Assembly (NCBI GenBank): GCA_035283785.1
Contig: DATETG010000005.1
Coordinates: 2,902 to 66,901 of the forward strand
Direction: 5' to 3'
DNA: 64,000 nucleotides
From: Candidatus Nanoarchaeia archaeon
GTDB taxonomy: Archaea; Nanobdellota; Nanobdellia; Pacearchaeales; GW2011-AR1
Shown in pieces: positions 298 through 34,409 of the stretch (positions within the stretch are counted from its first letter, which is position 1; every line of letters starts with the position of its first letter). Under the pieces are notes generated by a model. That model ran no database searches and was not told the DNA's origin. It saw only the letters and a list, made by a program, of their open reading frames with translations. A program made the translations under genes and the position numbers.

Positions 298-1305
298 ATG
301 GAAATAATATTTCTGTTTTCATTGGCCATAAGCTTTGTCATAACATTGATGATTATCCCTCCCTGGATAAAAAAATCAAAGTCACGCGGTTTTTTATGGG
401 AAGACATGAACAAATACAAGCATCCGAAAAATGTGGCTTCGTCCGGAGGTGTTGTGGTGATGATTTCTTTTGTTCTTGGAGTTTTGTATTACATCGCCGT
501 TAAGACTTTTGTCATAAAATCATACAATAGCGAAGTTATTGAGATATTCGCACTTCTTAATGTAATTCTAATTTTTACCATAATCGGATTTATAGACGAT
601 TTATGGGATTGGAGAAGTGGTGGCTTGTCAAAAAGATGGAGATTAATCCTGGCTGCCGTTGCATCAATACCTTTAATTGCAATTAATGTGGGAACTTCTT
701 CAATGAGCATCCCCCTTCTTGGAACAGTTGACTTTGGGATAATCTACCCTTTGCTACTTGTACCTTTGGGAATTGTCGGCGCGGCAACGACATACAATTT
801 TCTTGCAGGGTTTAACGGATTGGAGGCAAGCCAGGGAATAATAATACTGTCGTTCTTGTCTTTTGTCGCATACAAAACAGGTTCCTCTTGGCTGGCAATT
901 GTAGGTATGACCATGGTTTTTTCTCTTATTGCTTTTTATTTTTTTAACAAATGCCCTGCAAAAATATTCCCAGGAGATTCCATGACATGGTGTATCGGTG
1001 CGTTAATAGCAATAATGGCCATACTCGGAAATTTCGAGAAAATCGCTGTTTTTGTTTTTATTCCCTACATTATTGAAACAGTTCTAAAAACAAGCGGCAA
1101 ACTTGAGAAACATTCTTTCGGCGAACCAAACAAAGACGGAAGTCTGGATATGCCTTACAAGAAAATATACGGGCTTACACACGCAGGGATTTATATCTTG
1201 AAAAAAATAAAGCCTAACAAGAAAGCATATGAAAATGAAGTTGTGTACTTGATTAACGGTTTCCAGATATTAATAATACTAATCGCATATTTTTTGTTTC
1301 TGTAG
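298..1305 (+). CDS. aglH: GlcNAc-1-phosphate transferase (GT4 / MraY-WecA-GPT family), AglH-like
   Basis: Polytopic membrane protein. FIDDLWDW (DDxxD-like) motif and N..NG.E..G motif typical of polyprenyl-P HexNAc-1-P transferases. It sits immediately upstream of aglB. Confidence 0.7.
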   Translation: MEIIFLFSLAISFVITLMIIPPWIKKSKSRGFLWEDMNKYKHPKNVASSGGVVVMISFVLGVLYYIAVKTFVIKSYNSEVIEIFALLNVILIFTIIGFIDDLWDWRSGGLSKRWRLILAAVASIPLIAINVGTSSMSIPLLGTVDFGIIYPLLLVPLGIVGAATTYNFLAGFNGLEASQGIIILSFLSFVAYKTGSSWLAIVGMTMVFSLIAFYFFNKCPAKIFPGDSMTWCIGALIAIMAILGNFEKIAVFVFIPYIIETVLKTSGKLEKHSFGEPNKDGSLDMPYKKIYGLTHAGIYILKKIKPNKKAYENEVVYLINGFQILIILIAYFLFL

Positions 1306-1344
1306 AAACCAAAACTTTAAAACAACCCCTAATTTTATCTGGAA

Positions 1345-4026
1345 ATGGCTGATGAATTTTCGTTTGATATAAAAAAGATTATTTCATTTTTTAATGAAAA
1401 AAAGATTTTTAATGCAATAATCATCATCCTGTTCCTAGCCCTTCTTATCGGAAGCTCGTGGATGCGGTTTCAAAATATGGATCTCCTAAAAGATGTGACC
1501 AATGGAGAACCAATTCCGATAGAGCTAGATACTTTTTATTTCCTAAGAATGGCTGAAACAATAATTGAACAGGGGGCGTTACCAGAATTTGACAATATGA
1601 GATATGTTCCTGCAAAAATTGAATTTTCAAAAGAGATAACTCCTGATGTTCTTGTTTTTATGTACAGGGTTTCAAACGTGTTCGGAGATTACAGCTTACG
1701 ATATCTGGACTTGATCTATCCTGTGATTTTTTTTGCCTTAGGATTGATAGCATTCTTTTTCCTTATTTATGCCTTGACAAATTCAAAAATAACTGCTCTG
1801 CTAAGCAGCGCATTTCTGGCAATTGCACCGACATACCTTTATAGAACCATCTCAGGTTTTTCTGATCACGATGCCATAGGAATGGCTGCCTTTTTTTCAG
1901 CTATGCTCTTTTACACAATAAGCCTAAAGTCAATCGAAAAAAATAAATTCGAGATTAAAAAAACCGTATTACTCGGAATTGGTGCCGGAGCCTTGACTGC
2001 AATTACAATTGTTTCATGGGGAGGAATTGCAAACTACTTATTCATGATTTTTTCCCTAGCACTAATAATAATCTGGTTGATAAAAACAAAGAATATAGAA
2101 GAAATACATGAACTAAAAAGTTATTTGTACTTTTACCCTGCTTGGATTTTCTCAGGTGTTCTGTTCACATCTTTATTTGGCTATGAAGCCATAAGTGTCA
2201 TAAAAAGATATATCTTATCTACAAGTGGCATTATCAGCTTGTTTGTTCTTGGATTTATCATAATTGATTATATCCTCATCCATTTCAGGAATAAAAACGC
2301 GTTCATAAGAAAAAATGAAAAGTATAGGGTGATAATCAGCTTAGTTGCTACAATTTCTTTAGGAATAATCTTCCTTTCTTTAGTAGGAAGGAATCCATTT
2401 GATTTTATTTCTATTCTATTTGGGAGATTTATAGAACCTCTAGGTGTTGGAAGAACAGGTTTGACAGTTGCCGAAAATGTTCAAACATCTTTGAGTGATT
2501 GGATAAGCCAGATAGGGAAAATTTTCTTTTGGTTATTTTATCTTGGAGTGGCAATTGTTGGCATTGAAGTTGCAAAAGGCATTGAAAAAAGAAAAAACAA
2601 GATACTATTTTTCGTTTTTTGGATGATAATGATCTCGGGGATTCTGTTGAGCAAAATTTCTGGAGGTTCCATACTAAACGGATCTAATCTAATAAGCAAT
2701 TTGTTTTACATGGGAGGCATACTTCTATTTTTTGGTTATTGTGTATGGATGTATTTTAATGATAACATGAAAATAAAACCTGAAATGGCTATCCTTGTTT
2801 CTTGGCTTTTTTTCATGCTAATATCAGCGAGAGGAGCGATAAGACTTTTCTTTTCAGCGATGCCTTTCGTGGCATTCATGGGGGTTTTTAGCGTCGTTAA
2901 GATTTTTGATTATTGGAAAAAAACAAAAGATGATCTTCTGAAAGTTGTCTTTGTTGTTTTGCTCATTTTATCGCTTGTGGGGTTGATGATTAGTGCACAG
3001 TTATTTGTCAATTCTTCAAACGAGCAGACGAAATTTAGCGGACCGACAGTAACACCTCAGTGGCAAAAAGCGATGTTTTGGTTAAGAGAAAACACTCCTG
3101 AAAGATCAATCATTGTTCACTGGTGGGATTATGGGTACTGGGTACAATATCTCGGAGAGAGGCCAACTGTCACCGACGGAGGACATGGTGTTGGTTATTG
3201 GGATCACCTGATTGGAAGATATCTTCTAACAACACCTAATCCGGACGCTGCCTTGAGTTTCATGAAAACACAAAATGTTTCATATTTGATAATAGATCAA
3301 ACGGATCTCGGGAAATATCCTGCTTATAGCAAAATAGGAAGCGACCCTGGTGGAAACGACAGATATTCTCAAATTCCTGTGATGACATTAAATCCAAGCC
3401 AGACACAAGAGACAGCCGAAGGCATTTTAAGAGTATATGAAGGTGGGACTCTTGTTGATGAAGACATTTTTTACCAAGATATATTCCTCCCTTCGGGAAA
3501 TGCGATAATAGCAGCGGTTGTGCTTGAAGAATCCGCCTCAGGATTCAAGACTTTTTCACAACCTTATGGAGTATTCCTGTACAACCAAAAACAGATAAAC
3601 CTTCCAATAAGGTACATGTATTATGAAAATCAACTGATTGATTTTGGAGGTGGTTTGAATGCAACAATAAGAATAATTCCAAAAATTGACCAATCATCAA
3701 GTCAGAACATCAATGTAGACAAATCTGGCGCTGCAATATACCTATCACCAAAAGTCTCAAAAAGCCTTTTTGCCCAACTTTACATTCTCGATGATGCATT
3801 TGAGAATTATGGAACAGTGAGCCTGGTTCATTCAGAGGATGATCTTTTGGTTTCCACGCTTAATTCTCAAGGAGCAGATGTTGGTGACTTTGTTTATTTC
3901 CAGGGATTTAGAGGACCAATAAAAATATGGAAGATAGATTATCCTTCAAACATCGTGCCGAGAGAGGAATTTCTAAGAACTTCCGGAGAATACGCAGAGT
4001 TTGACAACCTGAAATTTACCAAGTAG
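1345..4026 (+). CDS. aglB: Archaeal oligosaccharyltransferase AglB (STT3 family)
   Basis: 893 aa with an N-terminal multi-TM domain. The WWDYGYW catalytic motif is present (HWWDYGYWVQY) and a large soluble C-terminal domain follows. Confidence 0.9.
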   Translation: MADEFSFDIKKIISFFNEKKIFNAIIIILFLALLIGSSWMRFQNMDLLKDVTNGEPIPIELDTFYFLRMAETIIEQGALPEFDNMRYVPAKIEFSKEITPDVLVFMYRVSNVFGDYSLRYLDLIYPVIFFALGLIAFFFLIYALTNSKITALLSSAFLAIAPTYLYRTISGFSDHDAIGMAAFFSAMLFYTISLKSIEKNKFEIKKTVLLGIGAGALTAITIVSWGGIANYLFMIFSLALIIIWLIKTKNIEEIHELKSYLYFYPAWIFSGVLFTSLFGYEAISVIKRYILSTSGIISLFVLGFIIIDYILIHFRNKNAFIRKNEKYRVIISLVATISLGIIFLSLVGRNPFDFISILFGRFIEPLGVGRTGLTVAENVQTSLSDWISQIGKIFFWLFYLGVAIVGIEVAKGIEKRKNKILFFVFWMIMISGILLSKISGGSILNGSNLISNLFYMGGILLFFGYCVWMYFNDNMKIKPEMAILVSWLFFMLISARGAIRLFFSAMPFVAFMGVFSVVKIFDYWKKTKDDLLKVVFVVLLILSLVGLMISAQLFVNSSNEQTKFSGPTVTPQWQKAMFWLRENTPERSIIVHWWDYGYWVQYLGERPTVTDGGHGVGYWDHLIGRYLLTTPNPDAALSFMKTQNVSYLIIDQTDLGKYPAYSKIGSDPGGNDRYSQIPVMTLNPSQTQETAEGILRVYEGGTLVDEDIFYQDIFLPSGNAIIAAVVLEESASGFKTFSQPYGVFLYNQKQINLPIRYMYYENQLIDFGGGLNATIRIIPKIDQSSSQNINVDKSGAAIYLSPKVSKSLFAQLYILDDAFENYGTVSLVHSEDDLLVSTLNSQGADVGDFVYFQGFRGPIKIWKIDYPSNIVPREEFLRTSGEYAEFDNLKFTK

Positions 4027-4030
4027 GACT

Positions 4031-5194
4031 GTGCTCCATAAGGTTTATGAATCTTTTTTTTCAAGGATTAAAATGAAAAAAGTTGCAATAATCATCGGAA
4101 CTAGGGCAGAATTCATTAAAACAATGCCGATAATGCTTGAATTGAAAAAAAGAAAAATTCCTTACTCTTTTATCCACACTGGACAACATAGTCTGAAAGA
4201 TTTGTGTGAAAAATTTGAAATCAAAAAACCCGACTTTGTTTTGACGCCCGCACCAAGTAAAAGCACCAAATTTTTTGCCCGCCATATTCGTGCTGCTTTT
4301 TGGAATTTAGGACTAATATTTTCCATAAAAAGAGTCATCAAAAAGATAAATCCGGACTATGTCATCTATCATGGAGATACTATGACAACAGCCTCTGCAT
4401 CGATAGCATCTTCTAAGATGTTGAACCCGTCTAAAAAATATAAAAATATCCACTTGGAAGCCGGATTGAGAAGCGGAAATTTGTTTGAGCCTTTCCCTGA
4501 AGAAATTTCCAGAATAATTGCAGACAGATTTTCCGAAGTTTTGTTTGCAGTTTCCGAGAGGAGCAAAAATAATCTAAGAAGATATAAAAAGTCTAAGAAG
4601 ATAATCCTCACCGGAAATACCATCATTGACTCTGTAGATGTTTCATACAAAAAAGCATTGAAAGAAAAAATAAAAGTGTTCTCAAATAAAAAGTTTGCAT
4701 TGATATCCATACATCGACACGAAAACATAAAAAATAAAAAACGCCTGGAAAAAATTGTTAAAATTTTGCTTTCATTAAACATACCTTCTTATTTTCCATT
4801 GTATGACAATACCAAGGAAAAATTGATAAAATTCGGGCTTTACAAGAAATTAATAGAGAACAAAAATATAACGATTCTGGAATACATAGACTATGTTAAT
4901 TTCATATATCAATTAAAAAACTGTTCTCTGCTTATTTGCGACGGAGGTTCCATTCAAGAAGAGAGTCTTGTGTTTGGAAAGCCATGTATAATACTCAGAA
5001 ATTTTACAGAAAGGCAGGAAGGATTGGAATCAAATTTTCAATTTTTGTCCAAGCTTAACGTGAAAAAAACAGTATACAAAATAAACGAATATCTATCCAA
5101 AGATTTTAAAGTTAAAAAATTCAAAAATCCCTATGGAAACATTGGATTAAGCGAAAAAATAGTTGATCTTATTCAAAATGATAAAAATTATTGA
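4031..5194 (+). CDS. wecB: UDP-N-acetylglucosamine 2-epimerase (non-hydrolysing)
   Basis: N-terminus VAIIIGTRAEFIKTMPIM...HTGQH is typical of UDP-GlcNAc 2-epimerases. Length 387 aa. Confidence 0.8.
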   Translation: MLHKVYESFFSRIKMKKVAIIIGTRAEFIKTMPIMLELKKRKIPYSFIHTGQHSLKDLCEKFEIKKPDFVLTPAPSKSTKFFARHIRAAFWNLGLIFSIKRVIKKINPDYVIYHGDTMTTASASIASSKMLNPSKKYKNIHLEAGLRSGNLFEPFPEEISRIIADRFSEVLFAVSERSKNNLRRYKKSKKIILTGNTIIDSVDVSYKKALKEKIKVFSNKKFALISIHRHENIKNKKRLEKIVKILLSLNIPSYFPLYDNTKEKLIKFGLYKKLIENKNITILEYIDYVNFIYQLKNCSLLICDGGSIQEESLVFGKPCIILRNFTERQEGLESNFQFLSKLNVKKTVYKINEYLSKDFKVKKFKNPYGNIGLSEKIVDLIQNDKNY

Positions 5195-6038
5195 ATCCCT
5201 TTCATGGATTCCCTATAAAACAGCGAAAATGTTTGGAAAACGTAAAAACGATTTTCTGATCTTGGATCTTGAGAAGATAGGAATAAAAAAGAGATTTAAG
5301 TTTAATACTACAAAAACAGACGAAGGTTTGTCATCACAATTAAAAACTTTTGGTTTTAGAGAACCTGTAAATCTGGAGTATTATCACAAATTCGTTGAAA
5401 AAAACGACAAGGTTCTCGATATAGGGGCGAACATAGGATTATTTACGATTTTGAGTGAAAATGCAAAAGAAATTATTTGTGTTGAACCGCTTAAACAGGC
5501 AATTCCTCTGCTTAAGAAAAATATAAATGACAACAATCTGATGGAAAAAACAAAAATAATAAACGCTGCTGTTGGTAAAAAAGGGAAATTGATAATATCC
5601 GTTGACGAGCAGCTGAATCTTTCAAGAATAGTCAGCAAGAAAACAAAAAATTCCTACGAAGTAAAAAGTATGGAATTAATGGATCTGACAAAAAGATATG
5701 ATTCAAATCTTTTAAGAATGGACGTAGAAGGATATGAGTATGAAATACTATTTGAGAAACTACCTAAAAGAATAAACAAAATATCTATCGAATTTCACAC
5801 ATTGCTTCTTGGAAAAGAAAAAGTTTCCAAGCTCTTGAATTATCTTGAAAAAGAAGGCTTTAAGCTGAAATATTTTATAGAGGATCTCCCGATAAGGCTT
5901 TATCCTTTTTTCAATATTTTAAAGAAGTTTGGCTTTTTAAGAAGATTTACCTACGTAAAAAGAAACATTTCAATAAATGAATGTTCAAAAATTATCGGCA
6001 AGGGGAGGGCAGTAAAATACTTGTTTCTTCAGAGATAG
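5163..6038 (+). CDS. FkbM-family SAM-dependent methyltransferase
   Basis: LDIGANIGLFT motif characteristic of the FkbM methyltransferase family. Confidence 0.7.
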   Translation: MILFKMIKIIESLSWIPYKTAKMFGKRKNDFLILDLEKIGIKKRFKFNTTKTDEGLSSQLKTFGFREPVNLEYYHKFVEKNDKVLDIGANIGLFTILSENAKEIICVEPLKQAIPLLKKNINDNNLMEKTKIINAAVGKKGKLIISVDEQLNLSRIVSKKTKNSYEVKSMELMDLTKRYDSNLLRMDVEGYEYEILFEKLPKRINKISIEFHTLLLGKEKVSKLLNYLEKEGFKLKYFIEDLPIRLYPFFNILKKFGFLRRFTYVKRNISINECSKIIGKGRAVKYLFLQR

Positions 6039-6072
6039 AAATGCTTAAAAAATAGTTACTAATATCGTAAAT

Positions 6073-7212
6073 ATGAATAAAAAGAAAAAGACAATAAGAA
6101 TTGACTTCAGGTATTACTGGTGGCATTTCAATCCGGAAAACAACATTTTTACAAATCTTCTAAAAAAAGACTACAATGTGATAATAGACAAAGAAAATCC
6201 AGATTATGTGTTTTTTTCGGTATACACTCCAACGAGACCAATTCACAAACATGAAAGTTTAGGAAAGAAAATTGAGAATTTTTCTCCTACAGTTTATAAG
6301 ATTCTTAGAGAGATTTATTATTTCAAAAAGGAAAGGTGGAAAATGCCTTCGATAAAGGGTAATTTCGTAAAAATTTTCTTTACAGTTGAGAATGCAAAAC
6401 CAAACATGAAAGAATGCGACTGGGCGTTCACTCATGAATACGACGAAGAATTGCAAAATCCCGGGCATATGAGAATTCCCGGATATGCATTTAACTCCAT
6501 AAAAAATCCTGAAGAATTGATAAAGCCGAAAAACCTTGACGTTAAAAAAATAATGAGTGGGAAGAAAAAATTCTGCGTCTTCATATGTTCAAACAATGTA
6601 ACATTTAGGAACAGTTTTTTCAAAAAGCTCAACAAATCCAAGAAGGTAGAATCGTGGGGGAAGGTTTTGAACAACATGGGGAGAGGCATTCCAAAAGTAG
6701 TGGAAATCAATAAGGACAAAAAATCAAAGGGTGAAACCAAAGAGTATGTTGCAAGAGACTTCCTCGCCCAATACAAATTCACAATTGCTTTTGAAAATGC
6801 GTCTCATGTAGGATACACCTCTGAAAGAAAAGTTGAGCCAATGAGGATCTACAACATTCCTATCTACTGGGGGAATCCTCTTGTGTACAGGGACTTTAAC
6901 ACAAAAAGTTTCATAAATTATCATGACTTTGAAAAACAAGTCAGAAAAAAACTGCCAAACTTTTTCTTTAAGATACCACTAATAAATTTCTTGTCGGAAA
7001 AATATGTTGAAGAGATGACTTTCAGAAAAATGATTAAAAGAATAATTGAACTAGACAACAATGATGAGTTATACATGGAAATGTTAAAACAGCCTTGGTA
7101 TAATGATAATGAGCCGCCAATTTATCTTGATAGGGAAAGAATCAGAAAAAGGCTCAGAGAGATAATTGAATCTGGAAAGAAGAATTCTAATATAAAAAAT
7201 GAAAGAAGATGA
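6073..7212 (+). CDS. GT10-family alpha-1,3/4-fucosyltransferase-like glycosyltransferase
   Basis: Contains YKFTIAFENASHVGYTSERK, which matches the GT10 alpha-1,3-FucT signature FxxAFENS...GYxTEK. Confidence 0.6.
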   Translation: MNKKKKTIRIDFRYYWWHFNPENNIFTNLLKKDYNVIIDKENPDYVFFSVYTPTRPIHKHESLGKKIENFSPTVYKILREIYYFKKERWKMPSIKGNFVKIFFTVENAKPNMKECDWAFTHEYDEELQNPGHMRIPGYAFNSIKNPEELIKPKNLDVKKIMSGKKKFCVFICSNNVTFRNSFFKKLNKSKKVESWGKVLNNMGRGIPKVVEINKDKKSKGETKEYVARDFLAQYKFTIAFENASHVGYTSERKVEPMRIYNIPIYWGNPLVYRDFNTKSFINYHDFEKQVRKKLPNFFFKIPLINFLSEKYVEEMTFRKMIKRIIELDNNDELYMEMLKQPWYNDNEPPIYLDRERIRKRLREIIESGKKNSNIKNERR

Positions 7213-7387
7213 AGTTCTAATAAGATTTTTCTATGTGGACGAGGAATTTAATAAAATAAATAGAAAAGAGGAACTTCCTATGGAAGCGTTGAAAATAGAA
7301 CTTGACAGAATAAAATCTGAAGAAAAATCTTTAAGCAGAGAAGAAATAGAAAAAAGTTACAAGATCTTGACTGGGTTAGTAGACTAA
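7199..7387 (+). CDS. small charged hypothetical protein (possible antitoxin partner)
   Basis: 62-aa ORF rich in coiled-coil/charged residues, upstream of a RelE/ParE-like small ORF. Confidence 0.2.
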   Translation: MKEDEVLIRFFYVDEEFNKINRKEELPMEALKIELDRIKSEEKSLSREEIEKSYKILTGLVD

Positions 7388-7491
7388 AGGGACTTTCTTG
7401 CAAAAAACAAGAAGTAGATGTTAATGTACTGTGCATTGATACCCATCATAGTGGAAGTCTTTTTCATGAAACAACGGTTAAACAAGGAGAG

Positions 7492-7719
7492 TTGCATGTA
7501 GATATAGTAAAAAAAGGTGAAGATGCTAAAACAGAGTCTTTATTAAAAATTTCTGATTTTAAGGGGTTTATATCAAACTTACCTCCTGCTGTAAGAAAAA
7601 GAGCTAATTTTTTTGAAGTCTTGTGGGGAAATCATAGAGTCTTCGCCACTATAAAAAGAAATGATAAAAATTTGATGGTTTTACTTGTCTGTGACAATGA
7701 TCCTCAATCAATAACATGA
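7492..7719 (+). CDS. small protein with weak RelE/ParE-toxin-like features
   Basis: 75 aa. F..I..LPPAVRKR segment and HRVFATIK...LMVLLVCDN resemble the RelE/ParE fold pattern. The similarity is weak. Confidence 0.25.
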   Translation: MHVDIVKKGEDAKTESLLKISDFKGFISNLPPAVRKRANFFEVLWGNHRVFATIKRNDKNLMVLLVCDNDPQSIT

Positions 7720-8936: not shown

Positions 8937-9086
8937 GGTCTTTGTTCCCCTTATAATTTCTTTTGGATTCTCGAAATAATCATGCACCCTGTTTTTCAGG
9001 CCAAGAAATGAAGTTGACAAATTTTCAGACATAAAAATCAATAAAAAACCTGATTTTTAAGTTTTGTGCAATTAACTCACCACAAA

Positions 9087-9096: not shown

Positions 9097-9116
9097 GATT
9101 TGACTATTCTAAAACC

Positions 9117-19486: not shown

Positions 19487-19487
19487 T

Positions 19488-23566: not shown

Positions 23567-23570
23567 CAAA

Positions 23571-24746: not shown

Positions 24747-25626
24747 AAATTTCAACCAGCGTCGCGGTCTTCCAGGAGGAGTAGGAAATGCAAACGAAGA
24801 AATTGCAAAAGAGATGGAAAAACTTGGGCACAAGGTAGACTTTTTGTCCAGGGAAGATGACATGAAAATTTATTCTCTGTGGAAATCTATATTCCCTATA
24901 AGAAAAAAAGTGAAGGAACTTATGAATAAAAATCATTATGAGGTTATATTCAGCCAAGATTGGAGTTTTGCCTTTCCTTTACTTTTCCCAAAAAGAATAT
25001 TCAAAAAAAATCACATCTGTTGTTTTTGTGGTCATCAAGAAAATTGGCTGATTTTTTTGCAAAATATTGTGGGAAAAATGATGGGAGAAAAATTAATTGT
25101 TATAGGGGATGACCTAAAGAAAAGGTTTCCAAAAGCAACATTAATCTACAGAGGTGTAAACTTCAGTAAGTTTAAGCCATTAAAGAGAAAAAGAGATTGT
25201 CTTTGTTGGACAGACAAGGGGGATGAATACAAGATGATTTCGGAAGATGAACTCGAAAAAATTGCAATTGAAAACAATTTAAAACTATCAATAGCAAAGG
25301 GAATCCCTTCCAACAAAATGAATGAATTTTACAACAAGTGTAAAGTTTTTATCAGCGTGCCCCCTCAAGCAGGATATAACAATTCCTGGAATGAATCGAT
25401 GGCGGCTGGCGTTCCGATAGTCATTGGTAACAACAAAGGAGGAGGAACAATGCTCCCATTAAACAGAATATCTAAAAATGAAGATAATGTAAAGAGGATA
25501 AATGAAATAATAAAAAACCCTAAAAAAATAAATTACAGAAAATGGCTGAGAGATAATGGATTCGCTTGGGAAAATGTTGCAAAGAAGATGATTAATTTTT
25601 TTGAAAAGGAAGTTATAACAAACTAA
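24724..25626 (+). CDS. small GT-B-like glycosyltransferase; full-length paralog of the fragment at 19049..19486
   Basis: 300 aa. The N-terminal half is homologous to 19049..19486. The C-terminal half carries a GT1-like ESMAAGVPIVIG segment. Confidence 0.5.
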   Translation: MKILIILKNFNQRRGLPGGVGNANEEIAKEMEKLGHKVDFLSREDDMKIYSLWKSIFPIRKKVKELMNKNHYEVIFSQDWSFAFPLLFPKRIFKKNHICCFCGHQENWLIFLQNIVGKMMGEKLIVIGDDLKKRFPKATLIYRGVNFSKFKPLKRKRDCLCWTDKGDEYKMISEDELEKIAIENNLKLSIAKGIPSNKMNEFYNKCKVFISVPPQAGYNNSWNESMAAGVPIVIGNNKGGGTMLPLNRISKNEDNVKRINEIIKNPKKINYRKWLRDNGFAWENVAKKMINFFEKEVITN

Positions 25627-27185: not shown

Positions 27186-28835
27186 TTACATTCTTAGTTT
27201 GTTCCAATTTTCACTCTTGAATAAAGAACTAAAGAAGAATTTTGCTGTAAATGTGCCGACATTTTTTATTGCCAACAACCTAAAGACATAGAAGATAACC
27301 TTTAGGTTTTTTTGTTTAATCATTGAGTAAACAGTGAATAGAAATATCTTTTGAAACACATTTGAAAAAACAGGGTAGTTCAGTTTTCCTATTTTTGTTG
27401 TTTTAACTAATGGGATTGAGATAAAAGACATGATATCACGACGGAAAAATTTGTTTTTTCTTCTTTTTAGTAGATTCTCGAAATCATGATAGTTCTCTAA
27501 AAGATATTCTCTAGAAACAGCAATCTGCTCAGGGATTATTAATCTTTCAAATTCCTCTAAATTCAATTCATTAAACGACTTAAGCATATCGACAAGAAGC
27601 AAATTCCCAAGTAGCTTGTCGAAAAAATAATAATCACAGATGCTAATCTGTTTTTTTGTAACATCCATAGCGCGAGACCGCAAATATTCCAGATATTCCA
27701 TATTTTCCGAGTCGTTAGATGAAAAACAAATGTAATCAAATCCTTCGGTAATTTTTTTAACGTAATCAAAGTTTTTTACTTCTTCTTTTTTTATCATCTT
27801 CATTTTTTTATTTGATTTTATTAACTTTGAAGAAAAAACATTCTCATTCTCCAACATTTTACCGAATAATTTTTGGTACTCCTGTGAGATGTTATGGTTT
27901 TTTATCGCTTTAGTGTAAGATTTTTCGGCAATTTTCTCTCGCGCCGTTTCATTTTTGAGGTAGTATGCAATCTTTTTTAACAATTCCTCGTTATTTTTGA
28001 ACATAACAATCTCCTCGTTATTTTTGAAGAATTTAAGATATCCTGAAAAGAAGTCGACGAGGCTAAAGGACTTGCATGCAGCAAACTCAAAAATTCTTCC
28101 TTTAAAATGCAATTTCCCATAACGGTTCTTAGAAAATGCCAAATTTATTTTACTCTGATTTACTATCTTAACAAATTTTTCTGAATCCGGAGAACCAAGA
28201 TAAACATCCCGGAATTCGGGATAATTTTCCCATCCTCTTCCGAAGATTTTCAAGTTAACTTTTTTATCCAAGAGAAATCTCACGATATCTAATCTGGGTT
28301 TGGAGGGCTGTCCAATGAAAGTTACATCATAAATCTTTTTCGTTTTTATCGGCTTAAAGATATCTGTATTTATGCTGATAGTGGGAAAAACGTTTTTTAT
28401 GCCTTCTTTCTTATATTCGGCCACATAATTTGGTTGTGCTATAAAATTACAATCTACAAATAAAGCCTGATATCTTTTTAATGTCTCGAACTCAGTATCA
28501 TCGTCGCCAACAAAAGCGATTACCTTGATCTTGGGAGATATTTTTTTTATTTCCGCCATCGTTTGTATTGTCAATTCGTCCCTCCCGACTATTAAAAAAA
28601 TATAATCAGGCATTTCTTTTTTTATTAAACTAGAGAACATCTGGTTCATTTTTTCTGAACCACGAGAAAACCTCTCTTTTCTTGGATCAAACAATATTGT
28701 TTTTCCAAATATATTTTTCAAAGGAAGATAGTAATTCTGATAAGGGGCTTCATTTTTACTAGATGCGCTCCACATTGCAAAAAGTATTTTCTGTTTTTTC
28801 AATACTCTCTCCAATTCTTCCTGTTTAATTTTCAT
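27186..28835 (-). CDS. CgeB-like glycosyltransferase domain (N-terminal ~310 aa) fused to a ~240-aa C-terminal domain of unknown function
   Basis: KIFGRGW and FKGRIFEFAACKSF motifs resemble the CgeB/Glyco_trans_1_2 family. The C-terminal region is unrecognised. Confidence 0.45.
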   Translation of the reverse strand: MKIKQEELERVLKKQKILFAMWSASSKNEAPYQNYYLPLKNIFGKTILFDPRKERFSRGSEKMNQMFSSLIKKEMPDYIFLIVGRDELTIQTMAEIKKISPKIKVIAFVGDDDTEFETLKRYQALFVDCNFIAQPNYVAEYKKEGIKNVFPTISINTDIFKPIKTKKIYDVTFIGQPSKPRLDIVRFLLDKKVNLKIFGRGWENYPEFRDVYLGSPDSEKFVKIVNQSKINLAFSKNRYGKLHFKGRIFEFAACKSFSLVDFFSGYLKFFKNNEEIVMFKNNEELLKKIAYYLKNETAREKIAEKSYTKAIKNHNISQEYQKLFGKMLENENVFSSKLIKSNKKMKMIKKEEVKNFDYVKKITEGFDYICFSSNDSENMEYLEYLRSRAMDVTKKQISICDYYFFDKLLGNLLLVDMLKSFNELNLEEFERLIIPEQIAVSREYLLENYHDFENLLKRRKNKFFRRDIMSFISIPLVKTTKIGKLNYPVFSNVFQKIFLFTVYSMIKQKNLKVIFYVFRLLAIKNVGTFTAKFFFSSLFKSENWNKLRM

Positions 28836-30102
28836 ATCCTTTTATTTTTTTAACATAAGTTCCTTTCTTTAATATTGAATAATCATCTACAATAATGTTC
28901 AATAAGAAGAGATATGGTTTCAAAAATATTCGCGGGACGCGTTTAATACTCCACCTCATTTTTGTCCTTAACCATATTCTTTTTCTGTAAAAATAGTAAA
29001 ATATCCTTCCTTTTGATTTCCAAGGATTTTTTATCAATTGAAGTTTTTGCTCTCTGGTTAATCTCAATTTTTCCAAATCTGCTTGAGGATTAATGTCAAT
29101 CTTTGATATTCTTTTTTTCCAGAACAAAGGAACCTCGTCAAGTGTAATCATCAAATCTGTTCCATCTTTTTTGTTGCGAAAAGAATAAAATCTGCTTGAA
29201 GGATTTATGTTAACCCATCCTTCTCTGTAATCATCATAACCGTATGCTATTTTTATTTTCTTTTCAAAAAATCCGGGAGGTATGAACAATGGGGGCACCA
29301 AATCCGAAGGGATAAAATAGCCGTATTTTTTCGTATGTGAGTAACCATCAAAGTGAGCCATTATCTCTTTTTTTGGAGATATTACTACCTGATTCTTAAT
29401 CTCCACGAATTTTGCAACTTCTTCTGATCTTCTTATGACCCCCCTCATTTTCTCTGAAGAGAACAAATGATTCAACAAATCTTTATGCATTATTTGTATT
29501 GAATCAAATATCCCTCCAGGAAAAGATGAAATAAGGAAACTATCTGTTTCCTTTAATACTTTAGAGTTTGGTCTTGAGAGTTCGTGAACGGGATTCAATG
29601 GTTTTGAAGCATTCAAAAATTCTGTAAAATGGCTAGGATAAATTGATAAAAAATTTCTTTCCTGTTTTTTCTTAAGTTTTTTTAATTCATTAATGCATAA
29701 TGCCAAAATTTTTTTGCTGGGTGCAATAAAGGGATGATCAACGTTGCCGGTATAAAAAACCCACTCATCTTCAAGGGAGTTTATCAACTTTAAAGATTCT
29801 AGAAATTTTTCCTGGCAATCTCCTCTTCCATAAATTAGATGTAATCTCTTCTTTGGAAATAATTTCTTTACCTCTCTCTCAAAATATTTTCTTTTCTTAG
29901 CTAGAGGATCATTGTTAATCTCGTACTTTATGACCACATCAGTCCAAGAAATTTCCGCATAACTAATTAAAGAGTACAGAGCTATGTTAATCTTGCTCGG
30001 CATTTTGTAAGGAGTTTTAGAATCTCTTATGTCTTCAAAATCCAAATAATGACCTTTTTGCCACGGCTCGTCTATTATCAAGTTATCAAAATATAATATC
30101 AT
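28825..30102 (-). CDS. hypothetical protein (425 aa) within the glycan cluster
   Basis: Long ORF, tightly packed, overlapping its neighbours by a few nt. No motif recognised. Confidence 0.3.
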   Translation of the reverse strand: MILYFDNLIIDEPWQKGHYLDFEDIRDSKTPYKMPSKINIALYSLISYAEISWTDVVIKYEINNDPLAKKRKYFEREVKKLFPKKRLHLIYGRGDCQEKFLESLKLINSLEDEWVFYTGNVDHPFIAPSKKILALCINELKKLKKKQERNFLSIYPSHFTEFLNASKPLNPVHELSRPNSKVLKETDSFLISSFPGGIFDSIQIMHKDLLNHLFSSEKMRGVIRRSEEVAKFVEIKNQVVISPKKEIMAHFDGYSHTKKYGYFIPSDLVPPLFIPPGFFEKKIKIAYGYDDYREGWVNINPSSRFYSFRNKKDGTDLMITLDEVPLFWKKRISKIDINPQADLEKLRLTREQKLQLIKNPWKSKGRIFYYFYRKRIWLRTKMRWSIKRVPRIFLKPYLFLLNIIVDDYSILKKGTYVKKIKGYEN

Positions 30103-30140: not shown

Positions 30141-30581
30141 TCAAGAAGATTTGTGCTCAGAAGGTATTCTCCCAGAACCTCTTCCTACGTCGTCCTCATG
30201 CCGGATTACGTCGTCAACTTCAGGGGTGGAACATTCAATTATTACAGAATCTTCCAAGGCAATAGTTCTATGTTTTTTAGGCGGGATAATCTCCCACAAT
30301 CCTCCTGCTTCAACAATTCTCTTTTCTATTTCTCCGCTGTCTTTTTCATACCACGCTTCCACCTTGCCTGCAAGAAGGTAATTTATCTCTCTTTTATTGC
30401 TATGGTGCTGGAAACTCATTCTCGTTCCTGCATTAATCTCAAGCATTTTCATAACATATCTCTTCTCAATTTCTCCTACCTCTTCTCCTGCACGATAATT
30501 CAACCATATTTCTCTACCCCATGGCTTAACTACAATTTTAGCATCATTTATGTTATACAGCCAATCTTCTTTTTCGCTCAT
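30141..30581 (-). CDS. cupin-domain protein (possible sugar isomerase/epimerase)
   Basis: WGREIWL...MSFQHHSNKREINYLLAG cupin-2-like two-His motif pattern. 146 aa. Confidence 0.5.
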   Translation of the reverse strand: MSEKEDWLYNINDAKIVVKPWGREIWLNYRAGEEVGEIEKRYVMKMLEINAGTRMSFQHHSNKREINYLLAGKVEAWYEKDSGEIEKRIVEAGGLWEIIPPKKHRTIALEDSVIIECSTPEVDDVIRHEDDVGRGSGRIPSEHKSS

Positions 30582-30625
30582 TTTATTTTTCCATTAGCCC
30601 CATATATAAGCATTTGTGTTTTTGA

Positions 30626-31348
30626 TTACAACCCTCCACTAACCTTCAATGTTTGTCCAGTCATATAAGTATTTTTATCACTAGCAAGAAAGAGTATCAT
30701 CTCGGCAATTTCTTCTGCCCTAGCCATTCTCCCAAGTGGAACTTGCTCCAACTGCTTCCTTGTTCTGTCAGTTAGTGTTGCGGTGGTCATGTCTGTTTCT
30801 GTAAATCCCGGAGCAACAGCATTAACCAAAATTCCATAAGGGGCGAGGTCTCTCGCCATGTTTGAAGTCAAGTCAATAATCAATGCTTTTGAGCCAGCAT
30901 AAGCCCAGCTCCCAGGGAAGTATTCATATCCTTTAACAGAAGACATATTAATTATTTTTCCGAATTTTCTTTTTTGCATTTGTGGCATTACTGCTTTTGA
31001 AAAATTGACAACGCCTAAAACATTTGTTTCCAAAGTCTTCCTCCAATCCCTCCCTGTTTGTTCCATATATGGTTTCGAGAGATTTATCCCCGCATTATTT
31101 ATCAAGATATCCACTCTTCCAACTTTCTCGACCCCTCTCTTAACAGATATTTCATCAGCAACATCACAGAAAATATACTGGGAACCTATCTCTTCAGCAA
31201 GATTGATTAATCTTTTTGATTCTGTTTTTCCGTGCAACACCACCCTTGCCCCATAAGTTCTAGCCATGTGTGCTGTTGCCGCACCTATTCCTCTAGATGA
31301 ACCTGTTATCAGCATCGTTCTTCCTTCTAAACCGTAACAATTATCCAT
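30626..31348 (-). CDS. short-chain dehydrogenase/reductase (FabG-like SDR)
   Basis: TGSSRGIGAATA (TGxxxGIG), NNAG, and S...YAGSKAL (YxxxK) motifs. Confidence 0.85.
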   Translation of the reverse strand: MDNCYGLEGRTMLITGSSRGIGAATAHMARTYGARVVLHGKTESKRLINLAEEIGSQYIFCDVADEISVKRGVEKVGRVDILINNAGINLSKPYMEQTGRDWRKTLETNVLGVVNFSKAVMPQMQKRKFGKIINMSSVKGYEYFPGSWAYAGSKALIIDLTSNMARDLAPYGILVNAVAPGFTETDMTTATLTDRTRKQLEQVPLGRMARAEEIAEMILFLASDKNTYMTGQTLKVSGGL

Positions 31349-32333
31349 AATGGTTTATTACCTCCACCATCTCATTAATTATACTCTCTCTTATGTCTTC
31401 TCTTTCTTCCAATTTTTTCATTATCTCTTTATACTTTTCCGAGCCGAAATGATAATGCCCTGCAATTAGCAAACAGAGAAATTTATTTTCCCCACTATTT
31501 GATTGCATCCATTTTTTCCATTTCATTCCTCCATAAACCTCCTCAATAAAATCATTAAAATCTATCCCGTAAATTAAGCACTTTGATATCATAATACTTG
31601 TTTGTATAACTCCTAATTGAGGGGCAATATTCATGGCATCTACAACTCCCTTTCTTAATTCAATTTCTTCTCTTGGGAGATAATCTGCATTATGCTCTTT
31701 TAGTTTCAGACCTTTCGAGTCCAAGATCTTTTTTACTTTTTCTATGAAGGGCCTATTAAAATTGCCGACTTGATTTATCTCTTTTACAAGACTTCCTGTT
31801 TGAACAACATAAAATTCAGGCTTGCAAAATCCTTTGAAAAAATCTATCTCTCTTTCAAGTTCGTGTAAGTTTGAGACATTGAAATTTATTCCCTCATTTT
31901 CGTCTGTTCCTATTTCCAACATTATTTTAGGATTTAACTTGAGGCAATATTCTATTGCTTTTTTTGACTCATTTAACATTTCTTCCTTGCTTCCTCGGAA
32001 ATGGCAAAAATCTATGTGTATTAAATCAAATCCATTTTCAATATCTGACTTAATTGTTTTGTAAACATTCTCCAAGTCAAAATTTCCATTAAAGCCCGGG
32101 CCACAATGGTCTCGGCAAATTAAGACCTGAGAATTCGGATATTTTTCTCTCATCGATTTTATAAAACTCATAAATTCTCTTGTATCCCACTTGTTCACAT
32201 AACCGCCATCATAGTCTATCTGGTTTTTTGAAGCGATTAGCATTAATTCCTTTCTTTGATAATGCGAAACCCTAAAAACAGCCTCGATAACTTCTGAGCT
32301 CATTGGTCCTACGGCCAAATTAGACTTAATCAT
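31341..32333 (-). CDS. GatZ/KbaZ-family (tagatose-6-phosphate kinase / sugar-phosphate 4-epimerase-like) TIM-barrel protein
   Basis: The N-terminus aligns with E. coli GatZ: LMLIASKNQIDYDGGY vs LIEATSNQVNQFGGY; DTREFMSFI vs DFREFVFAI; LICRDHCGPG vs ILGGDHLGPN. It is shorter (330 aa) than GatZ. Confidence 0.55.
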   Translation of the reverse strand: MIKSNLAVGPMSSEVIEAVFRVSHYQRKELMLIASKNQIDYDGGYVNKWDTREFMSFIKSMREKYPNSQVLICRDHCGPGFNGNFDLENVYKTIKSDIENGFDLIHIDFCHFRGSKEEMLNESKKAIEYCLKLNPKIMLEIGTDENEGINFNVSNLHELEREIDFFKGFCKPEFYVVQTGSLVKEINQVGNFNRPFIEKVKKILDSKGLKLKEHNADYLPREEIELRKGVVDAMNIAPQLGVIQTSIMISKCLIYGIDFNDFIEEVYGGMKWKKWMQSNSGENKFLCLLIAGHYHFGSEKYKEIMKKLEEREDIRESIINEMVEVINHYG

Positions 32334-33937
32334 TTTTTCACATCCTTCTTCATTTCCAGATTATTTAAGGCGTAATAAAGCTTGTTTTTTCCCATAAAGT
32401 ATAGCATCAAATTAAAGGGTTCCTGATGTAAGGGACTCATATTCAAAAAAATCAAAGCAGTTATAATTCTAATTTTGTCCAAATCAAAACCATGTTTTGT
32501 CAAAAAAGATTCGTACTCTTCTCTTGCTTCTATCAAATTATTACTTATCTTGTAGTCATAATAGATACTGTCCCCAGATATGTCAAATGAAAATTCTCCT
32601 TTCTTTATCGACTTGTATGAAATATTTGTCCCCCCATAAAGTTTGGCCAGATCATAATATAAATCTCCAAAATCCAAAGATTTTCCAAATTCATGTCTCC
32701 AATCCAGTAAGATAAATTTATTCAGGTTGCTGAGATTGTTTCGTGTAACCAAAACATTATCGAACTGCAAGTCTCCGTGAAAATTCACGGGTGTGCCCTC
32801 CTCCAAATAGTTCCAATCTATCTTATTCAAAAGTTCTTTTAGTGGTGGAATTTGAACTCCATTAACATTGCTCCATGAATCTTCAATTCTTGTCTTTTCA
32901 TAGAATCTTTTCAAACGTTCGAGAGTTTTATCATAATAAAATTCTTTGCAGGATTTTCTGAATTTTTCTTTTTCTTCTTCTGAGAGATTAATATCCTTCC
33001 ACAAATTAACCTTCAACCACCTTAAAAAATCTCGTACTATCTGCCTGTCTAGGACATCATAAAGAACCTGCCCGTCAATCATTTTATATGAATAAAAATT
33101 TCCCTTTTTTGATTCAACGACAGGACATAATCCTTTAAGATAATTGCTCCTGATTATTCTCTTTTCAACAATATCTTTTTCTGAAAAATATTTCACAACT
33201 TTTCCGTTTACAAAGTAAATGAATTCATTACTCTTACTAAAGTCGAACTCCTTGCCCCCTCCTGAAAAATTTTCATTTGTTTCTTTGTAGTTTTCAAGTG
33301 TTCCCGTATCAAACCACGTGAAACCGACAGGAACCAGCTTGTTATTTATCAATCTGTTGAAACCGTTTGAAACTTGGATTTCACCACTTTTTATTTCCTT
33401 ATCTTTCTCCAAACCTTCAAAAAAGTCCAAGTAGTCTCTCACTCCGGCAAGTCCTATAAATGCGAATTTGTTGTTTGTCTTTATTTTGTCATCAAGCTGA
33501 TAAACCAAGTTATTTTTTATCTTGACAGTGCAATACTTTTCAGTTTCCTTGACAGGAGCAATCCCAAACCAATTTTCATCCGGCTCTGGAATTTTTTCCA
33601 GCACAAGTGTGTCTGCCGCGAAAAAAATGAACGGGCACTGTAAATGACTTTTGCACTGAAACAAAGAGTAACCGGGTCCTGTTCCGGGCCCCAAGAACCT
33701 ATCAACTTCAACGTAAGTTATTTTTCTTTCAGGATGTGCGATATTCAGATAATCAATTATTGTCTCTTTTTTATGTCCAATTGCAACAACAATCTCTACA
33801 TCATCTGAAAATTTTTCTATTATGTGAGAAATAACTGCCTTGAAATTTATTGGCAATATCGCTTTGTTAACATTTTCTGAAAGTGCGCCAATCCTACTCC
33901 CTACGCCTGCTGCAAGGATACAAACTTTATATTTCAT
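32330..33937 (-). CDS. bifunctional protein: N-terminal sugar-phosphate nucleotidyltransferase fused to a C-terminal APH/choline-kinase-like kinase
   Basis: N-terminus KVCILAAGVGSRIG (NTP_transferase G-loop). The C-terminus has FHGDLQFDNVLV (Brenner HGDLxxxN catalytic loop) and LDWRHEFG (D-x-E/R of APH-type kinases). Confidence 0.65.
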   Translation of the reverse strand: MKYKVCILAAGVGSRIGALSENVNKAILPINFKAVISHIIEKFSDDVEIVVAIGHKKETIIDYLNIAHPERKITYVEVDRFLGPGTGPGYSLFQCKSHLQCPFIFFAADTLVLEKIPEPDENWFGIAPVKETEKYCTVKIKNNLVYQLDDKIKTNNKFAFIGLAGVRDYLDFFEGLEKDKEIKSGEIQVSNGFNRLINNKLVPVGFTWFDTGTLENYKETNENFSGGGKEFDFSKSNEFIYFVNGKVVKYFSEKDIVEKRIIRSNYLKGLCPVVESKKGNFYSYKMIDGQVLYDVLDRQIVRDFLRWLKVNLWKDINLSEEEKEKFRKSCKEFYYDKTLERLKRFYEKTRIEDSWSNVNGVQIPPLKELLNKIDWNYLEEGTPVNFHGDLQFDNVLVTRNNLSNLNKFILLDWRHEFGKSLDFGDLYYDLAKLYGGTNISYKSIKKGEFSFDISGDSIYYDYKISNNLIEAREEYESFLTKHGFDLDKIRIITALIFLNMSPLHQEPFNLMLYFMGKNKLYYALNNLEMKKDVKK

Positions 33938-34409
33938 TTTTTTCCAAAAAAACCTTGTTTATTTTTATGCAGGCGTCGCACACAGCGCCTTCCCCTGATT
34001 TTGAAGGAGTCACATATTTTGCCCATCTTTTTGCTTCAATTCTTGCATTCGCGGGAGCAATTCCAAATTTGCACTCTTTAATTATCTGCGAGTCAAAAAT
34101 TCCATCTCCAATAAAAATCATGTTGTTAAAATCAAAATTTTTCTTCAGCCATTCATATCTATTCCCGTCCGGAACAAGCTGAATCTTATAGCCCATGTCT
34201 TTTATCCTTCTTTTTGAAATTGAAAATCCTCTTTTGTCGGCGGAAATGAAAAGAATATTGAGTTTATCTTTGATTAACTTCAACCCGTCTGCGTCATGAG
34301 GTCCAAAAATCTTGTGAGATTTTCCCTTCGAGTCATACAAGAATTGTCCCGTAGTCATTACTCCATCTACATCTATGATTAAGTCCATTTTTTCCATCGT
34401 GTCTTGCAA
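33927..34409 (-). CDS. HAD-superfamily phosphatase, KdsC/YrbI subfamily (Kdo-8-P / NeuNAc-9-P phosphatase-like)
   Basis: DVDGVMTTGQ (DxDGVxTDG motif I), a small 160-aa size, and a C-terminal GDGIFD motif. Confidence 0.7.
   Translation of the reverse strand: MQDTMEKMDLIIDVDGVMTTGQFLYDSKGKSHKIFGPHDADGLKLIKDKLNILFISADKRGFSISKRRIKDMGYKIQLVPDGNRYEWLKKNFDFNNMIFIGDGIFDSQIIKECKFGIAPANARIEAKRWAKYVTPSKSGEGAVCDACIKINKVFLEKNEI

Follow-up and report, generated by a model that had tools for sequence, protein, structure and literature searches.

The 64-kb window analysed here (the whole stretch of DNA, archaeal and about 35% GC) comes from a tiny groundwater DPANN archaeon, listed at NCBI as a Candidatus Nanoarchaeia metagenome-assembled genome (MAG), and positions 298 to 34409 of the window hold an island of glycan genes that opens with a lipid-linked sugar transferase and the oligosaccharyltransferase AglB. 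We conclude that this is probably an aglB-anchored, hypervariable protein-glycosylation island, a reading that draws on gene content, sequence motifs, predicted folds, synteny, natural gene fusions and the integrity of the assembly. The right end of the island (30141-34409) is a five-gene cassette that is a widely conserved, uncharacterised precursor pathway as opposed to ordinary tailoring chemistry. We propose, more tentatively and with somewhat less than even confidence, that the cassette makes a rare nucleotide-activated sugar de novo, by a route that has not been described before and that has spread among DPANN archaea, bacteria of the candidate phyla radiation (CPR), other bacteria and viruses, where it would supply a shared and so far unrecognised component of surface glycans.

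An initiating transferase, AglB and a flippase are grouped in the island

An open reading frame (ORF) listing combined with Pfam and NCBIfam searches gave 31 ORFs in the island (Table 1), in line with the roughly 30 sugar-metabolism genes counted in an initial annotation made from the sequence alone, and every gene type named there was found at the position given for it. Pfam or NCBIfam domains back the glycan-gene assignment for all but four of the ORFs; with those four excepted, the domain searches support the glycosyltransferase and tailoring calls. The gene for a predicted initiating enzyme, a polyprenyl-phosphate sugar-1-phosphate transferase of the PF00953 family, is followed by aglB after a gap of 40 bp. 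AglB has the WWDYG motif at residues 593-597, DxD at 174-176 and a DK-type motif near 654, with 13 transmembrane (TM)-like segments in a hydropathy scan. The adjacency of an aglH-like gene and a WWDYG-bearing aglB, on which the initial annotation had built its case, was thereby confirmed by domains, catalytic motifs and topology, and the Wzx flippase it had named is present at 25623-27137. These three are the only membrane proteins in the island by the same scan (more than one TM-like segment). Six Leloir glycosyltransferases and Wzx lie within 27 kb of aglB, so the initiating transferase, glycosyltransferases and flippase are grouped with the oligosaccharyltransferase as in an archaeal aglB N-glycosylation cluster. 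Among the island proteins there was no Pfam match to Wzy, an O-antigen ligase or Wzz, and the island holds no chain-length regulator, export ABC transporter or outer export component. The 64-kb window contains neither a second flippase nor a second oligosaccharyltransferase.

The island is a local version of a hypervariable region at a fixed site

The nearest AglB homologs are 61% identical to the one described here. We compared the site with that of three relatives, L091 (TARA), L092 and L093 (GCA_900089805.1), in which AglB is 51-60% identical and the view reaches 10 kb past AglB. The left flank is the same in all three: a ribosomal-protein operon, SecY, an EMC3-like protein, prefoldin, IF-2B, SpoIIM, the PF00953 transferase (57-66% identical and again beside AglB) and AglB itself. 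Each relative then has at least 10 kb of dense glycan genes, and the gene sets differ. L092 has WecB, a NeuC/NeuB/CMP-sugar-synthetase set, a haloacid dehalogenase (HAD) family protein and an SIS protein; L093 has GT1 and GT2 glycosyltransferase genes, a thiamine diphosphate-dependent enzyme and a DegT aminotransferase; and L091 has GT1 and GT2 genes, methyltransferases and short-chain dehydrogenases/reductases (SDRs). The only island genes common to all three at high identity are those for the transferase and AglB (51-66%), while WecB is common to one relative and a GT1 is common at 35-37% identity. The conserved flank and the differing glycan genes downstream mark the island as a local form of a glycosylation region that is hypervariable yet sits at a fixed place on the chromosome, a kind of locus already known.

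The initial annotation had rated the island as much richer than the usual agl loci of archaea with small genomes. That description is not upheld by the comparison, since the three relatives hold dense, though different, glycan genes behind AglB; the synteny comparison it suggested found the left flank conserved but an island that is not exceptional in kind. To judge from these relatives, the lineage generally seems to carry a large variable island behind aglB. The present one may be long for the lineage, with the relatives visible to 10 kb only, and its gene content is unusual for Archaea. Its right border is formed by SecDF, followed by tRNAs and 5S rRNA.

Independent assemblies span the island

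The GC content is 34.0% in the island and 36.1% in the remaining window, with patches from 27.6% to 40%, and the coding strand changes six times along the island. The patchy GC and the strand switches are the only hints that the region could be a chimera of unrelated fragments, a possibility raised in the initial annotation. Contigs with identical AglB, FemAB-like and fusion proteins (the last from the cassette, described below) number in the dozens and come from independent ENA and JGI assemblies. Independent loci cover window positions 1-14591, 10441-19517, 16077-25555 and 22330-43938 at 99.86-100% identity, and a single 69.6-kb contig reaches across 10441-43938. Since these assemblies, from independent samples and assemblers, overlap co-linearly across 1-43938, we conclude that the island is not chimeric, and we regard an assembly artifact as ruled out for all practical purposes. 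An NCBI MAG labelled Candidatus Nanoarchaeia archaeon holds the same proteins, with AglB and the fusion annotated there as 'hypothetical protein'. An older NCBI third-party annotation record places the AglB (1345-4026) and fusion (32330-33937) proteins in 'Candidatus Woesebacteria bacterium' (HCR36440.1, HCR36079.1); we consider this a mislabel because the genome encodes AglB, PolD and Cdc6.

Genes for sugar donors, transfer and tailoring

Domain searches found six Leloir glycosyltransferases (one GT10-like, four GT4-type and one of the PF13524 type), whereas at least seven glycosyltransferases had been claimed, a number reached only by counting the PF00953 transferase or AglB. The product of 19049-19486, a probable remnant, is 37.6% identical to part of a GT4-type ORF in L091. 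GT10 enzymes use donors of the GDP-fucose type, and the GT10-like enzyme could for this reason transfer a GDP-linked 6-deoxyhexose.

Other calls of the initial annotation held up by domain: WecB, which passes its equivalog cutoff; two C-methyltransferases, which are 30% identical to each other and both of TylC3-type architecture; FkbM and class I methyltransferases; a FemAB-like transferase; and an ArnD-like deacetylase. Its WecC-like dehydrogenase, and with it a route to UDP-N-acetylmannosaminuronic acid (UDP-ManNAcA), stood in part. The epimerase and a dehydrogenase of the nucleoside diphosphate (NDP)-sugar subfamily are present, but the identity as WecC is only plausible, as the protein scores 168 bits against a cutoff of 750 and 114 against 459 with the UDP-ManNAc dehydrogenase equivalogs. 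Gene callers choose a later start for this ORF, giving 432 aa. In sample SAMN03842448 (L095 6496-7359, corresponding to window 16936-17799), the RmlD-type reductase is called as two pieces of 36 and 228 aa, which suggests that this strain carries a disrupted copy.

At E ≤ 0.001, no Pfam family matched the products of 10097-11206, 19049-19486, 20751-21365 or 28825-30102, and likewise none matched the cupin of the cassette; for 10097-11206, 20751-21365 and 28825-30102 there was no match even at E ≤ 0.1.

Table 1. ORFs of the island, in window coordinates, with predicted products and the evidence for each.
Position	Strand	Predicted product	Evidence
298-1305	+	Polyprenyl-phosphate sugar-1-phosphate transferase (AglH/Alg7/WecA-type), predicted initiating enzyme	PF00953 E 4.4e-31; 8 TM-like segments
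1345-4026	+	AglB oligosaccharyltransferase (GT66)	PF02516, PF21436, PF22627 (STT3 domains)
4031-5194	+	UDP-GlcNAc 2-epimerase WecB (non-hydrolysing)	TIGR00236 237.5 bits, cutoff 210.15
5163-6038	+	FkbM-family methyltransferase	PF05050; TIGR01444 79 bits, cutoff 37.7
6073-7212	+	GT10-like (alpha-1,3-fucosyltransferase family)	PF18025 51.7 bits, PF00852 46.3 bits, both above cutoff
7704-9041	-	NDP-hexose C-methyltransferase, copy 1	Methyltransf_13 (zinc), S-adenosylmethionine (SAM) methyltransferase, Methyltransf_14
9066-10100	+	Extended SDR, 4,6-dehydratase/epimerase type	PF01370, PF16363; top NCBIfam models LegB and dTDP-glucose dehydratase, both under cutoff
10097-11206	-	Soluble protein without family, 369 aa	No Pfam, NCBIfam or PDB sequence match
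11231-12007	-	Short RmlD-like SDR, possibly degenerate	PF04321 positions 2-150 of 287, N-terminal half only
11949-13361	-	NDP-sugar 6-dehydrogenase, WecC-like candidate	TIGR03026 (subfamily) 262.9 bits, cutoff 189.8
13311-14444	+	GT4-type GT-B glycosyltransferase	PF00534 E 4.7e-27
14441-15517	+	FemAB-family (aminoacyl-transferase-like) protein	PF02388, PF13480; TIGR03019 pepcterm_femAB 141.7 bits, under cutoff
15535-16161	+	Class I SAM methyltransferase	PF08241 E 3.6e-18
16158-16934	+	CE4 polysaccharide deacetylase, ArnD top match	PF01522; NF011923 ArnD E 1.2e-19, under cutoff
16816-17799	+	RmlD-type 4-ketoreductase	PF04321 E 1.8e-46; 287 aa in other assemblies' gene calls
17800-19083	-	NDP-hexose C-methyltransferase, copy 2	Methyltransf_13, Methyltransf_14
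19049-19486	-	Probable GT4-type remnant, N-terminal domain only	Weak PF13439, E 0.002
19488-20195	-	Sugar-1-phosphate nucleotidyltransferase	PF00483 E 3.2e-32; top NCBIfam matches mannose-1-P guanylyltransferase, archaeal GlmU N-terminal domain
20751-21365	-	Protein without family, 204 aa	No Pfam or NCBIfam match
21439-22503	+	NDP-hexose 4,6-dehydratase	PF16363 E 4.1e-63; dTDP-glucose dehydratase model E 3.4e-54, under cutoff
22457-23566	+	GT4-type glycosyltransferase	PF13439, PF00534
23571-24746	+	GT4-type glycosyltransferase	PF13692, PF00534
24724-25626	+	Short GT4-type glycosyltransferase	Weak PF13439, PF13692; 53% identical to L091 glycosyltransferase
25623-27137	-	Wzx/MOP-family flippase, AglR-like role	PF01943, PF13440; 14 TM-like segments
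27186-28835	-	Glycosyltransferase-like protein, PF13524 (CgeB-like) type, 549 aa	PF13524 E 1.2e-23
28825-30102	-	425-aa protein adjoining cassette	No Pfam, NCBIfam, PHROG or PDB match
30141-30581	-	Cupin, type-II phosphomannose-isomerase-like, 146 aa	Family-based; Q58, H60, E65, H104 and KPWGxExW kept
30626-31348	-	FabG-like classical SDR, reductase step	PF13561 E 2.7e-58
31341-32333	-	Compact GatZ/KbaZ-fold class-II-aldolase-type enzyme, 330 aa	AlphaFold2 (AF2), Foldseek, hhalign
32330-33937	-	Fusion, 535 aa: N-terminal nucleotidyltransferase, C-terminal APH/choline-kinase-fold kinase	PF12804, PF00483
33927-34409	-	KdsC-type C0 HAD phosphatase	PDB 2p9j E 4.9e-16; KdsC 4um5 E 4.7e-14; TIGR01670 E 2.5e-16, under cutoff

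What the island may build

For the scheme that follows, we infer the substrates, the order of steps and the N-linkage of the product. The PF00953 transferase would place a sugar-1-phosphate on polyprenyl (dolichyl) phosphate, and the six soluble Leloir enzymes would lengthen the lipid-linked oligosaccharide at the cytoplasmic face with nucleotide sugars made by the island. Tailoring would consist of O-methylation by the FkbM and class I methyltransferases, and of de-N-acetylation by the CE4 enzyme followed by acylation or aminoacylation by the FemAB-like protein. The contiguity of the FemAB-like, methyltransferase and deacetylase genes suggests an amino sugar that is de-N-acetylated and then re-acylated. 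The Wzx-type flippase would carry the glycan across the membrane, and AglB would hand it to Asn residues of surface proteins. One predicted donor is UDP-ManNAc, from WecB, probably along with its uronic acid, formed through the dehydrogenase. A second is predicted to be a C-methyl-branched 6-deoxyhexose, made by the nucleotidyltransferase, the 4,6-dehydratase, the two C-methyltransferases and the RmlD-type reductases, and the third would be the product of the cassette. Because there is no polymerase or chain-length regulator, a lipid-linked oligosaccharide is favoured over a polysaccharide. A polymerised product is also disfavoured by the hydropathy scan, which showed no membrane proteins beyond the transferase, AglB and Wzx. 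The heavily decorated N-glycan of the initial annotation would be one outcome of this scheme.

Several observations weigh against this scheme. FemAB-deacetylase pairs are a common feature of exopolysaccharide loci in bacteria, the six strand switches and uneven GC give the island the look of a mosaic that may serve more than one glycan, and every specific NCBIfam equivalog except WecB scored under its cutoff; sugar and nucleotide specificity are not readable from these sequences. The island could instead build mainly a non-N-linked glycan (a capsule-like polymer or exopolysaccharide, a glycolipid or an O-linked glycan), with the proximity of aglB reflecting a shared genomic hot spot. The FemAB-like and CE4 pair best fits the XrtA/PEP-CTERM exopolysaccharide models TIGR03019 and TIGR03006, a Wzx is present, many genes have bacterial best matches, and the cassette occurs in bacterial and viral neighbourhoods of the polysaccharide type. 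Yet the polymerization and export functions sought above (Wzy, chain-length regulator, export ABC transporter and outer export component) are missing, there are three membrane proteins only, and the transferase and AglB are adjacent and at the head of the variable block in every relative examined, so we consider this explanation quite unlikely. Alternatively, the island may combine genes for two or more separate glycans in a mosaic, in which case a single heavily decorated glycan would overstate the complexity of any one product. Haloferax has two N-glycosylation clusters, which offers a parallel. Here, the strand changes and GC blocks are joined by two paralogous sets of dehydratase, reductase and C-methyltransferase genes, and the glycosyltransferase fragment and half-length SDR point to gene turnover. 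Against this stand the single initiating transferase, flippase and AglB, and we think a multi-product mosaic unlikely, though deserving slightly more weight than a non-N-linked product. An aglB-anchored protein-glycosylation island remains the probable reading.

Families and folds of the five cassette proteins

None of the five cassette proteins reaches any NCBIfam model cutoff, and related phage families in PHROGs are filed as 'unknown function'. In the cupin family, Q58, H60, E65 and H104 are invariant and resemble the ligand set of phosphomannose isomerases. All 16 sampled members of the family matched PF01050 (best E 5.9e-9), with the window copy at E 0.038, under the cutoff; a profile of the family searched against PDB returned generic cupins only. 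The 330-aa protein was modelled by AF2 with a predicted local distance difference test score (pLDDT) of 87.5, and its top Foldseek matches were 3txv and 2fiq, at a TM-score of about 0.8 and about 15% identity. Aligned to E. coli GatZ with hhalign (89.7% probability), D75-H76 correspond to D87-H88, D144/E145 to E171 and H214 to H257. In GatZ, these Asp-His, acidic and His residues form the proposed zinc site for a C4-epimerisation of fructose-6-P to tagatose-6-P by retro-aldol and aldol steps (PMC11907403). The cassette protein differs from GatZ/KbaZ in length (330 aa versus about 420 aa) and in its biosynthetic as opposed to catabolic setting, and GatZ Glu44 lies opposite Ile33 in an alignment read by hand. 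It does not pass the GatZ/KbaZ equivalog TIGR02810 (30.9 bits against a cutoff of 568.8), with a sequence-level alignment of the N-terminal third only. It does have the class-II-aldolase TIM barrel of this family, and we predict a ketose-phosphate C4-epimerase or aldolase.

NCBIfam ranks sugar-1-phosphate nucleotidyltransferases on top for the N-terminal domain of the fusion. The kinase domain has an invariant HGDLQFDN motif and an AF2 pLDDT of 90.4. It was undetected by a PDB profile search on sequence and was found by fold search alone, where Foldseek matched it to ethanolamine/choline kinases, APH(2'') and fructosamine-3-kinase.

The cassette is conserved across archaea, bacteria and virus-labelled contigs

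Homologs of the fusion number more than 2300 at 90% clustering, with 689 representatives at 50% clustering (E ≤ 1e-30). DPANN and CPR copies are 60-75% identical to each other. Among the GTDB representatives, where the source species is not included, the best match is 75% identical. Gene neighbourhoods were counted around fusion homologs in 80 genome loci, from DPANN archaea, CPR and further bacteria, and on a set of 80 IMG/VR contigs. In the genomes, the fusion is accompanied by the GatZ-like gene in 73 of 80 loci, the cupin in 74 and the KdsC-type HAD in 59, and the genes stay contiguous in variable order. Sixty-five of the 80 loci encode a reductase, either the FabG-like SDR (23) or an AroE-like dehydrogenase (42) and never both, which is the pattern expected of one step filled by non-homologous enzymes. 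Counts on the IMG/VR contigs were 74 for GatZ-like, 75 for the cupin and 62 for AroE-like genes, with the KdsC type replaced by other small HAD proteins.

Natural fusions join the nucleotidyltransferase-kinase to the GatZ-like protein (P0402) and the cupin to the nucleotidyltransferase-kinase (P0449, P0420, P0502, L146), and GT2 glycosyltransferases are fused to the nucleotidyltransferase-kinase (P0438) or to the cupin (L041). These fusions argue that the parts belong to one pathway whose product feeds a glycosyltransferase. In a rough neighbour-joining tree of the fusion, the archaeal copies form one block within bacterial diversity; this is consistent with transfer from a bacterium to DPANN archaea but is not proof of it. 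Of the 80 genomes and the 80 IMG/VR loci, 6 and 15, respectively, have a homolog of the 425-aa protein (encoded next to the window copy) beside the cassette. We regard this protein as a candidate to use what the cassette makes.

At least 95 virus-labelled contigs (L097-L176; 8-300 kb, median locus GC 31.5%) carry the fusion with GatZ-like, cupin and AroE-like genes. The cassette neighbourhoods on IMG/VR contigs, known here by their virus label, contain glycosyltransferases and deoxysugar genes. A search of a plasmid collection returned no relatives of the fusion. Copies 65-68% identical occur in bins labelled Gammaproteobacteria/Pseudomonadales, which may be mis-binned. A gene of the inositol-monophosphatase family lies beside the cassette in 8 of 80 genomes (L012, L020, L023, L024, L028, L034, L043, L060); we considered it as a substitute for the HAD phosphatase, but the two co-occur in 5 of the 8 loci. 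Enterococcus phage 9183 (L177; MT939241.1 29756-31731) encodes a protein distantly related to the fusion, 23% identical over 94% of the length, next to a 114-aa HAD protein. Both lie inside the phage's module for nucleotide metabolism and replication, together with dTMP kinase, thymidylate synthase, dUTPase, a 'nucleotide sugar synthetase-like' protein, thymidine kinase and Pol III alpha, which hints at sugar supply for DNA hypermodification.

Proposed chemistry of the cassette

We infer that the cassette makes a nucleotide-activated sugar. The GatZ-fold enzyme would make or C4-epimerise a ketose phosphate (for example, fructose-6-P to tagatose-6-P), and the phosphomannose-isomerase-like cupin would convert the ketose phosphate to an aldose phosphate. 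The SDR would reduce one carbonyl, a step taken over in other genomes by the AroE-like enzyme. The kinase domain and HAD phosphatase would then shift the phosphate to the anomeric position (C1), from which the nucleotidyltransferase domain would yield an NDP-sugar. Starting from fructose-6-P, the route could run through tagatose-6-P to talose-6-P or galactose-6-P and on to an NDP-hexose. One candidate for the product is an NDP-hexose that belongs to the tagatose/talose series, another a related heptose, although any specific sugar is, at best, an unlikely guess.

Some findings fit this proposal poorly. In PDB sequence searches, the nucleotidyltransferase domain matched LicC (1jyk) best, the CTP:phosphocholine cytidylyltransferase and thus an enzyme for phospho-alcohols; the simplest ketose-to-NDP-aldose scheme leaves the reductase without an assigned place; the window copy has no GT2 partner; and to name the 425-aa protein or the PF13524 protein as the user of the product is a guess. 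The cassette could instead make a CDP-linked alcohol or polyol phosphate in the manner of LicC/LicA, such as a CDP-alditol, for a phospho-substituent and no NDP-sugar at all. The folds of both fusion domains fit the LicC/LicA CDP-choline system, with the kinase nearest to ethanolamine and choline kinases, and the cassette includes a reductase, as do the CDP-ribitol, CDP-glucitol and CDP-2-glycerol pathways. However, known CDP-alditol routes need no phosphatase plus kinase, the NCBIfam ranking favours sugar-1-phosphate substrates, and the domain searches of the island gave no phosphotransferase of the LicD or CDP-alcohol type, nor any LicB (choline transporter) domain. We down-weight the choline reading because of the GT2 fusions, which involve both the nucleotidyltransferase-kinase and the cupin, and because the partners are sugar enzymes, and we rate a CDP-alcohol product as very unlikely. 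A route to a nucleotide-activated sugar remains our working proposal.

The proposed logic of an isomerase, an anomeric kinase, a HAD phosphatase and a nucleotidyltransferase is that of the GDP-D-glycero-alpha-D-manno-heptose pathway (GmhA, HddA, GmhB, HddC). In contrast to that pathway, the cassette uses a cupin in place of an SIS isomerase, an APH/choline-kinase fold in place of a GHMP kinase, a KdsC-type phosphatase, and an extra GatZ-fold enzyme and reductase. Fkp of Bacteroides is a nucleotidyltransferase-kinase fusion that embodies the same idea as the cassette fusion. In the MupP-AmgK-MurU route to UDP-MurNAc, a HAD phosphatase, an APH-fold anomeric kinase and a nucleotidyltransferase relocate the phosphate from a distal carbon to C1 and then activate the sugar (PMC5371407), which is the logic we propose for the cassette. 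Those systems salvage existing sugars, whereas the cassette enzymes are accompanied by what appear to be de novo sugar-making enzymes.

Features around the island

About 7-8 kb upstream of the window start (L001-L005, locus ~670-1930), an RVT_1 ORF lies between SecY and the conserved flank. It is intact at 381 aa in one assembly and split (147-168 aa and ~230 aa) in others, and could represent a strain-variable element, either a group II intron or a diversity-generating retroelement. To the right of the island, the sequence at 37171-37262 is a third tRNA by Rfam (92 nt, 54 bits) that ARAGORN did not report and that may have an intron or an unusual arm; it sits in a tRNA-Gly / tRNA-Leu / tRNA / 5S rRNA cluster with no 16S or 23S nearby. 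A MacB-type ABC system, with two FtsX/MacB_PCD permeases and an ATPase, lies at 39921-43062, 5.5 kb past the island, and was counted outside it. The stretch 50721-56200 (~32% GC) begins with a serine recombinase (50721-51491, - strand) followed by small ORFs without a Pfam match, and adjoins Cdc6/Orc1 (56220-57458) and the small and large PolD subunits (57459-59069, 60020-63478); this could be a small element that has integrated beside the replication-origin region.

Discussion

The island shares with the agl clusters of Haloferax volcanii and Methanococcus an oligosaccharyltransferase beside an initiating transferase, soluble glycosyltransferases, a Wzx-like flippase (the AglR role), nucleotide-sugar genes and methyltransferases, and its ManNAc route, probably extended to ManNAcA, recalls that of the Methanococcus agl genes. 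The content of agl clusters differs from species to species, including among haloarchaea (PMC11407970). What sets the present island apart is its DPANN host, two NDP-hexose C-methyltransferases, a GT10-like enzyme, the FemAB-like and CE4 pair and the uncharacterised cassette. We know of no characterised agl cluster with any of these extras. Bacterial O-antigen and exopolysaccharide loci that depend on Wzx, those of the XrtA/PEP-CTERM type among them, resemble the island as mosaic, low-GC, hypervariable blocks between conserved flanks, with Wzx, GT4-type glycosyltransferases, deoxysugar genes and a FemAB-like and deacetylase pair. They differ in that the island is without Wzy, Wzz or export machinery and its terminal enzyme is AglB.

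In literature searches aimed at the cassette and at DPANN glycosylation we found neither described, and we know of essentially no experimental description of DPANN N-glycosylation. These ultra-small symbionts encounter both their hosts and their viruses at the cell surface. With aglB leading a hypervariable island, the arrangement parallels that of O-antigen loci and suggests diversifying selection on the surface glycan. Of the two, the cassette offers the more useful lead, given its roughly 690 clusters at 50% identity, its similarity across domains, its natural fusions and its presence in IMG/VR, and we consider it a good candidate for a new and widely distributed nucleotide-sugar pathway. 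If the proposed activity is true, it would name a sugar that is now invisible in the annotations of thousands of genomes.

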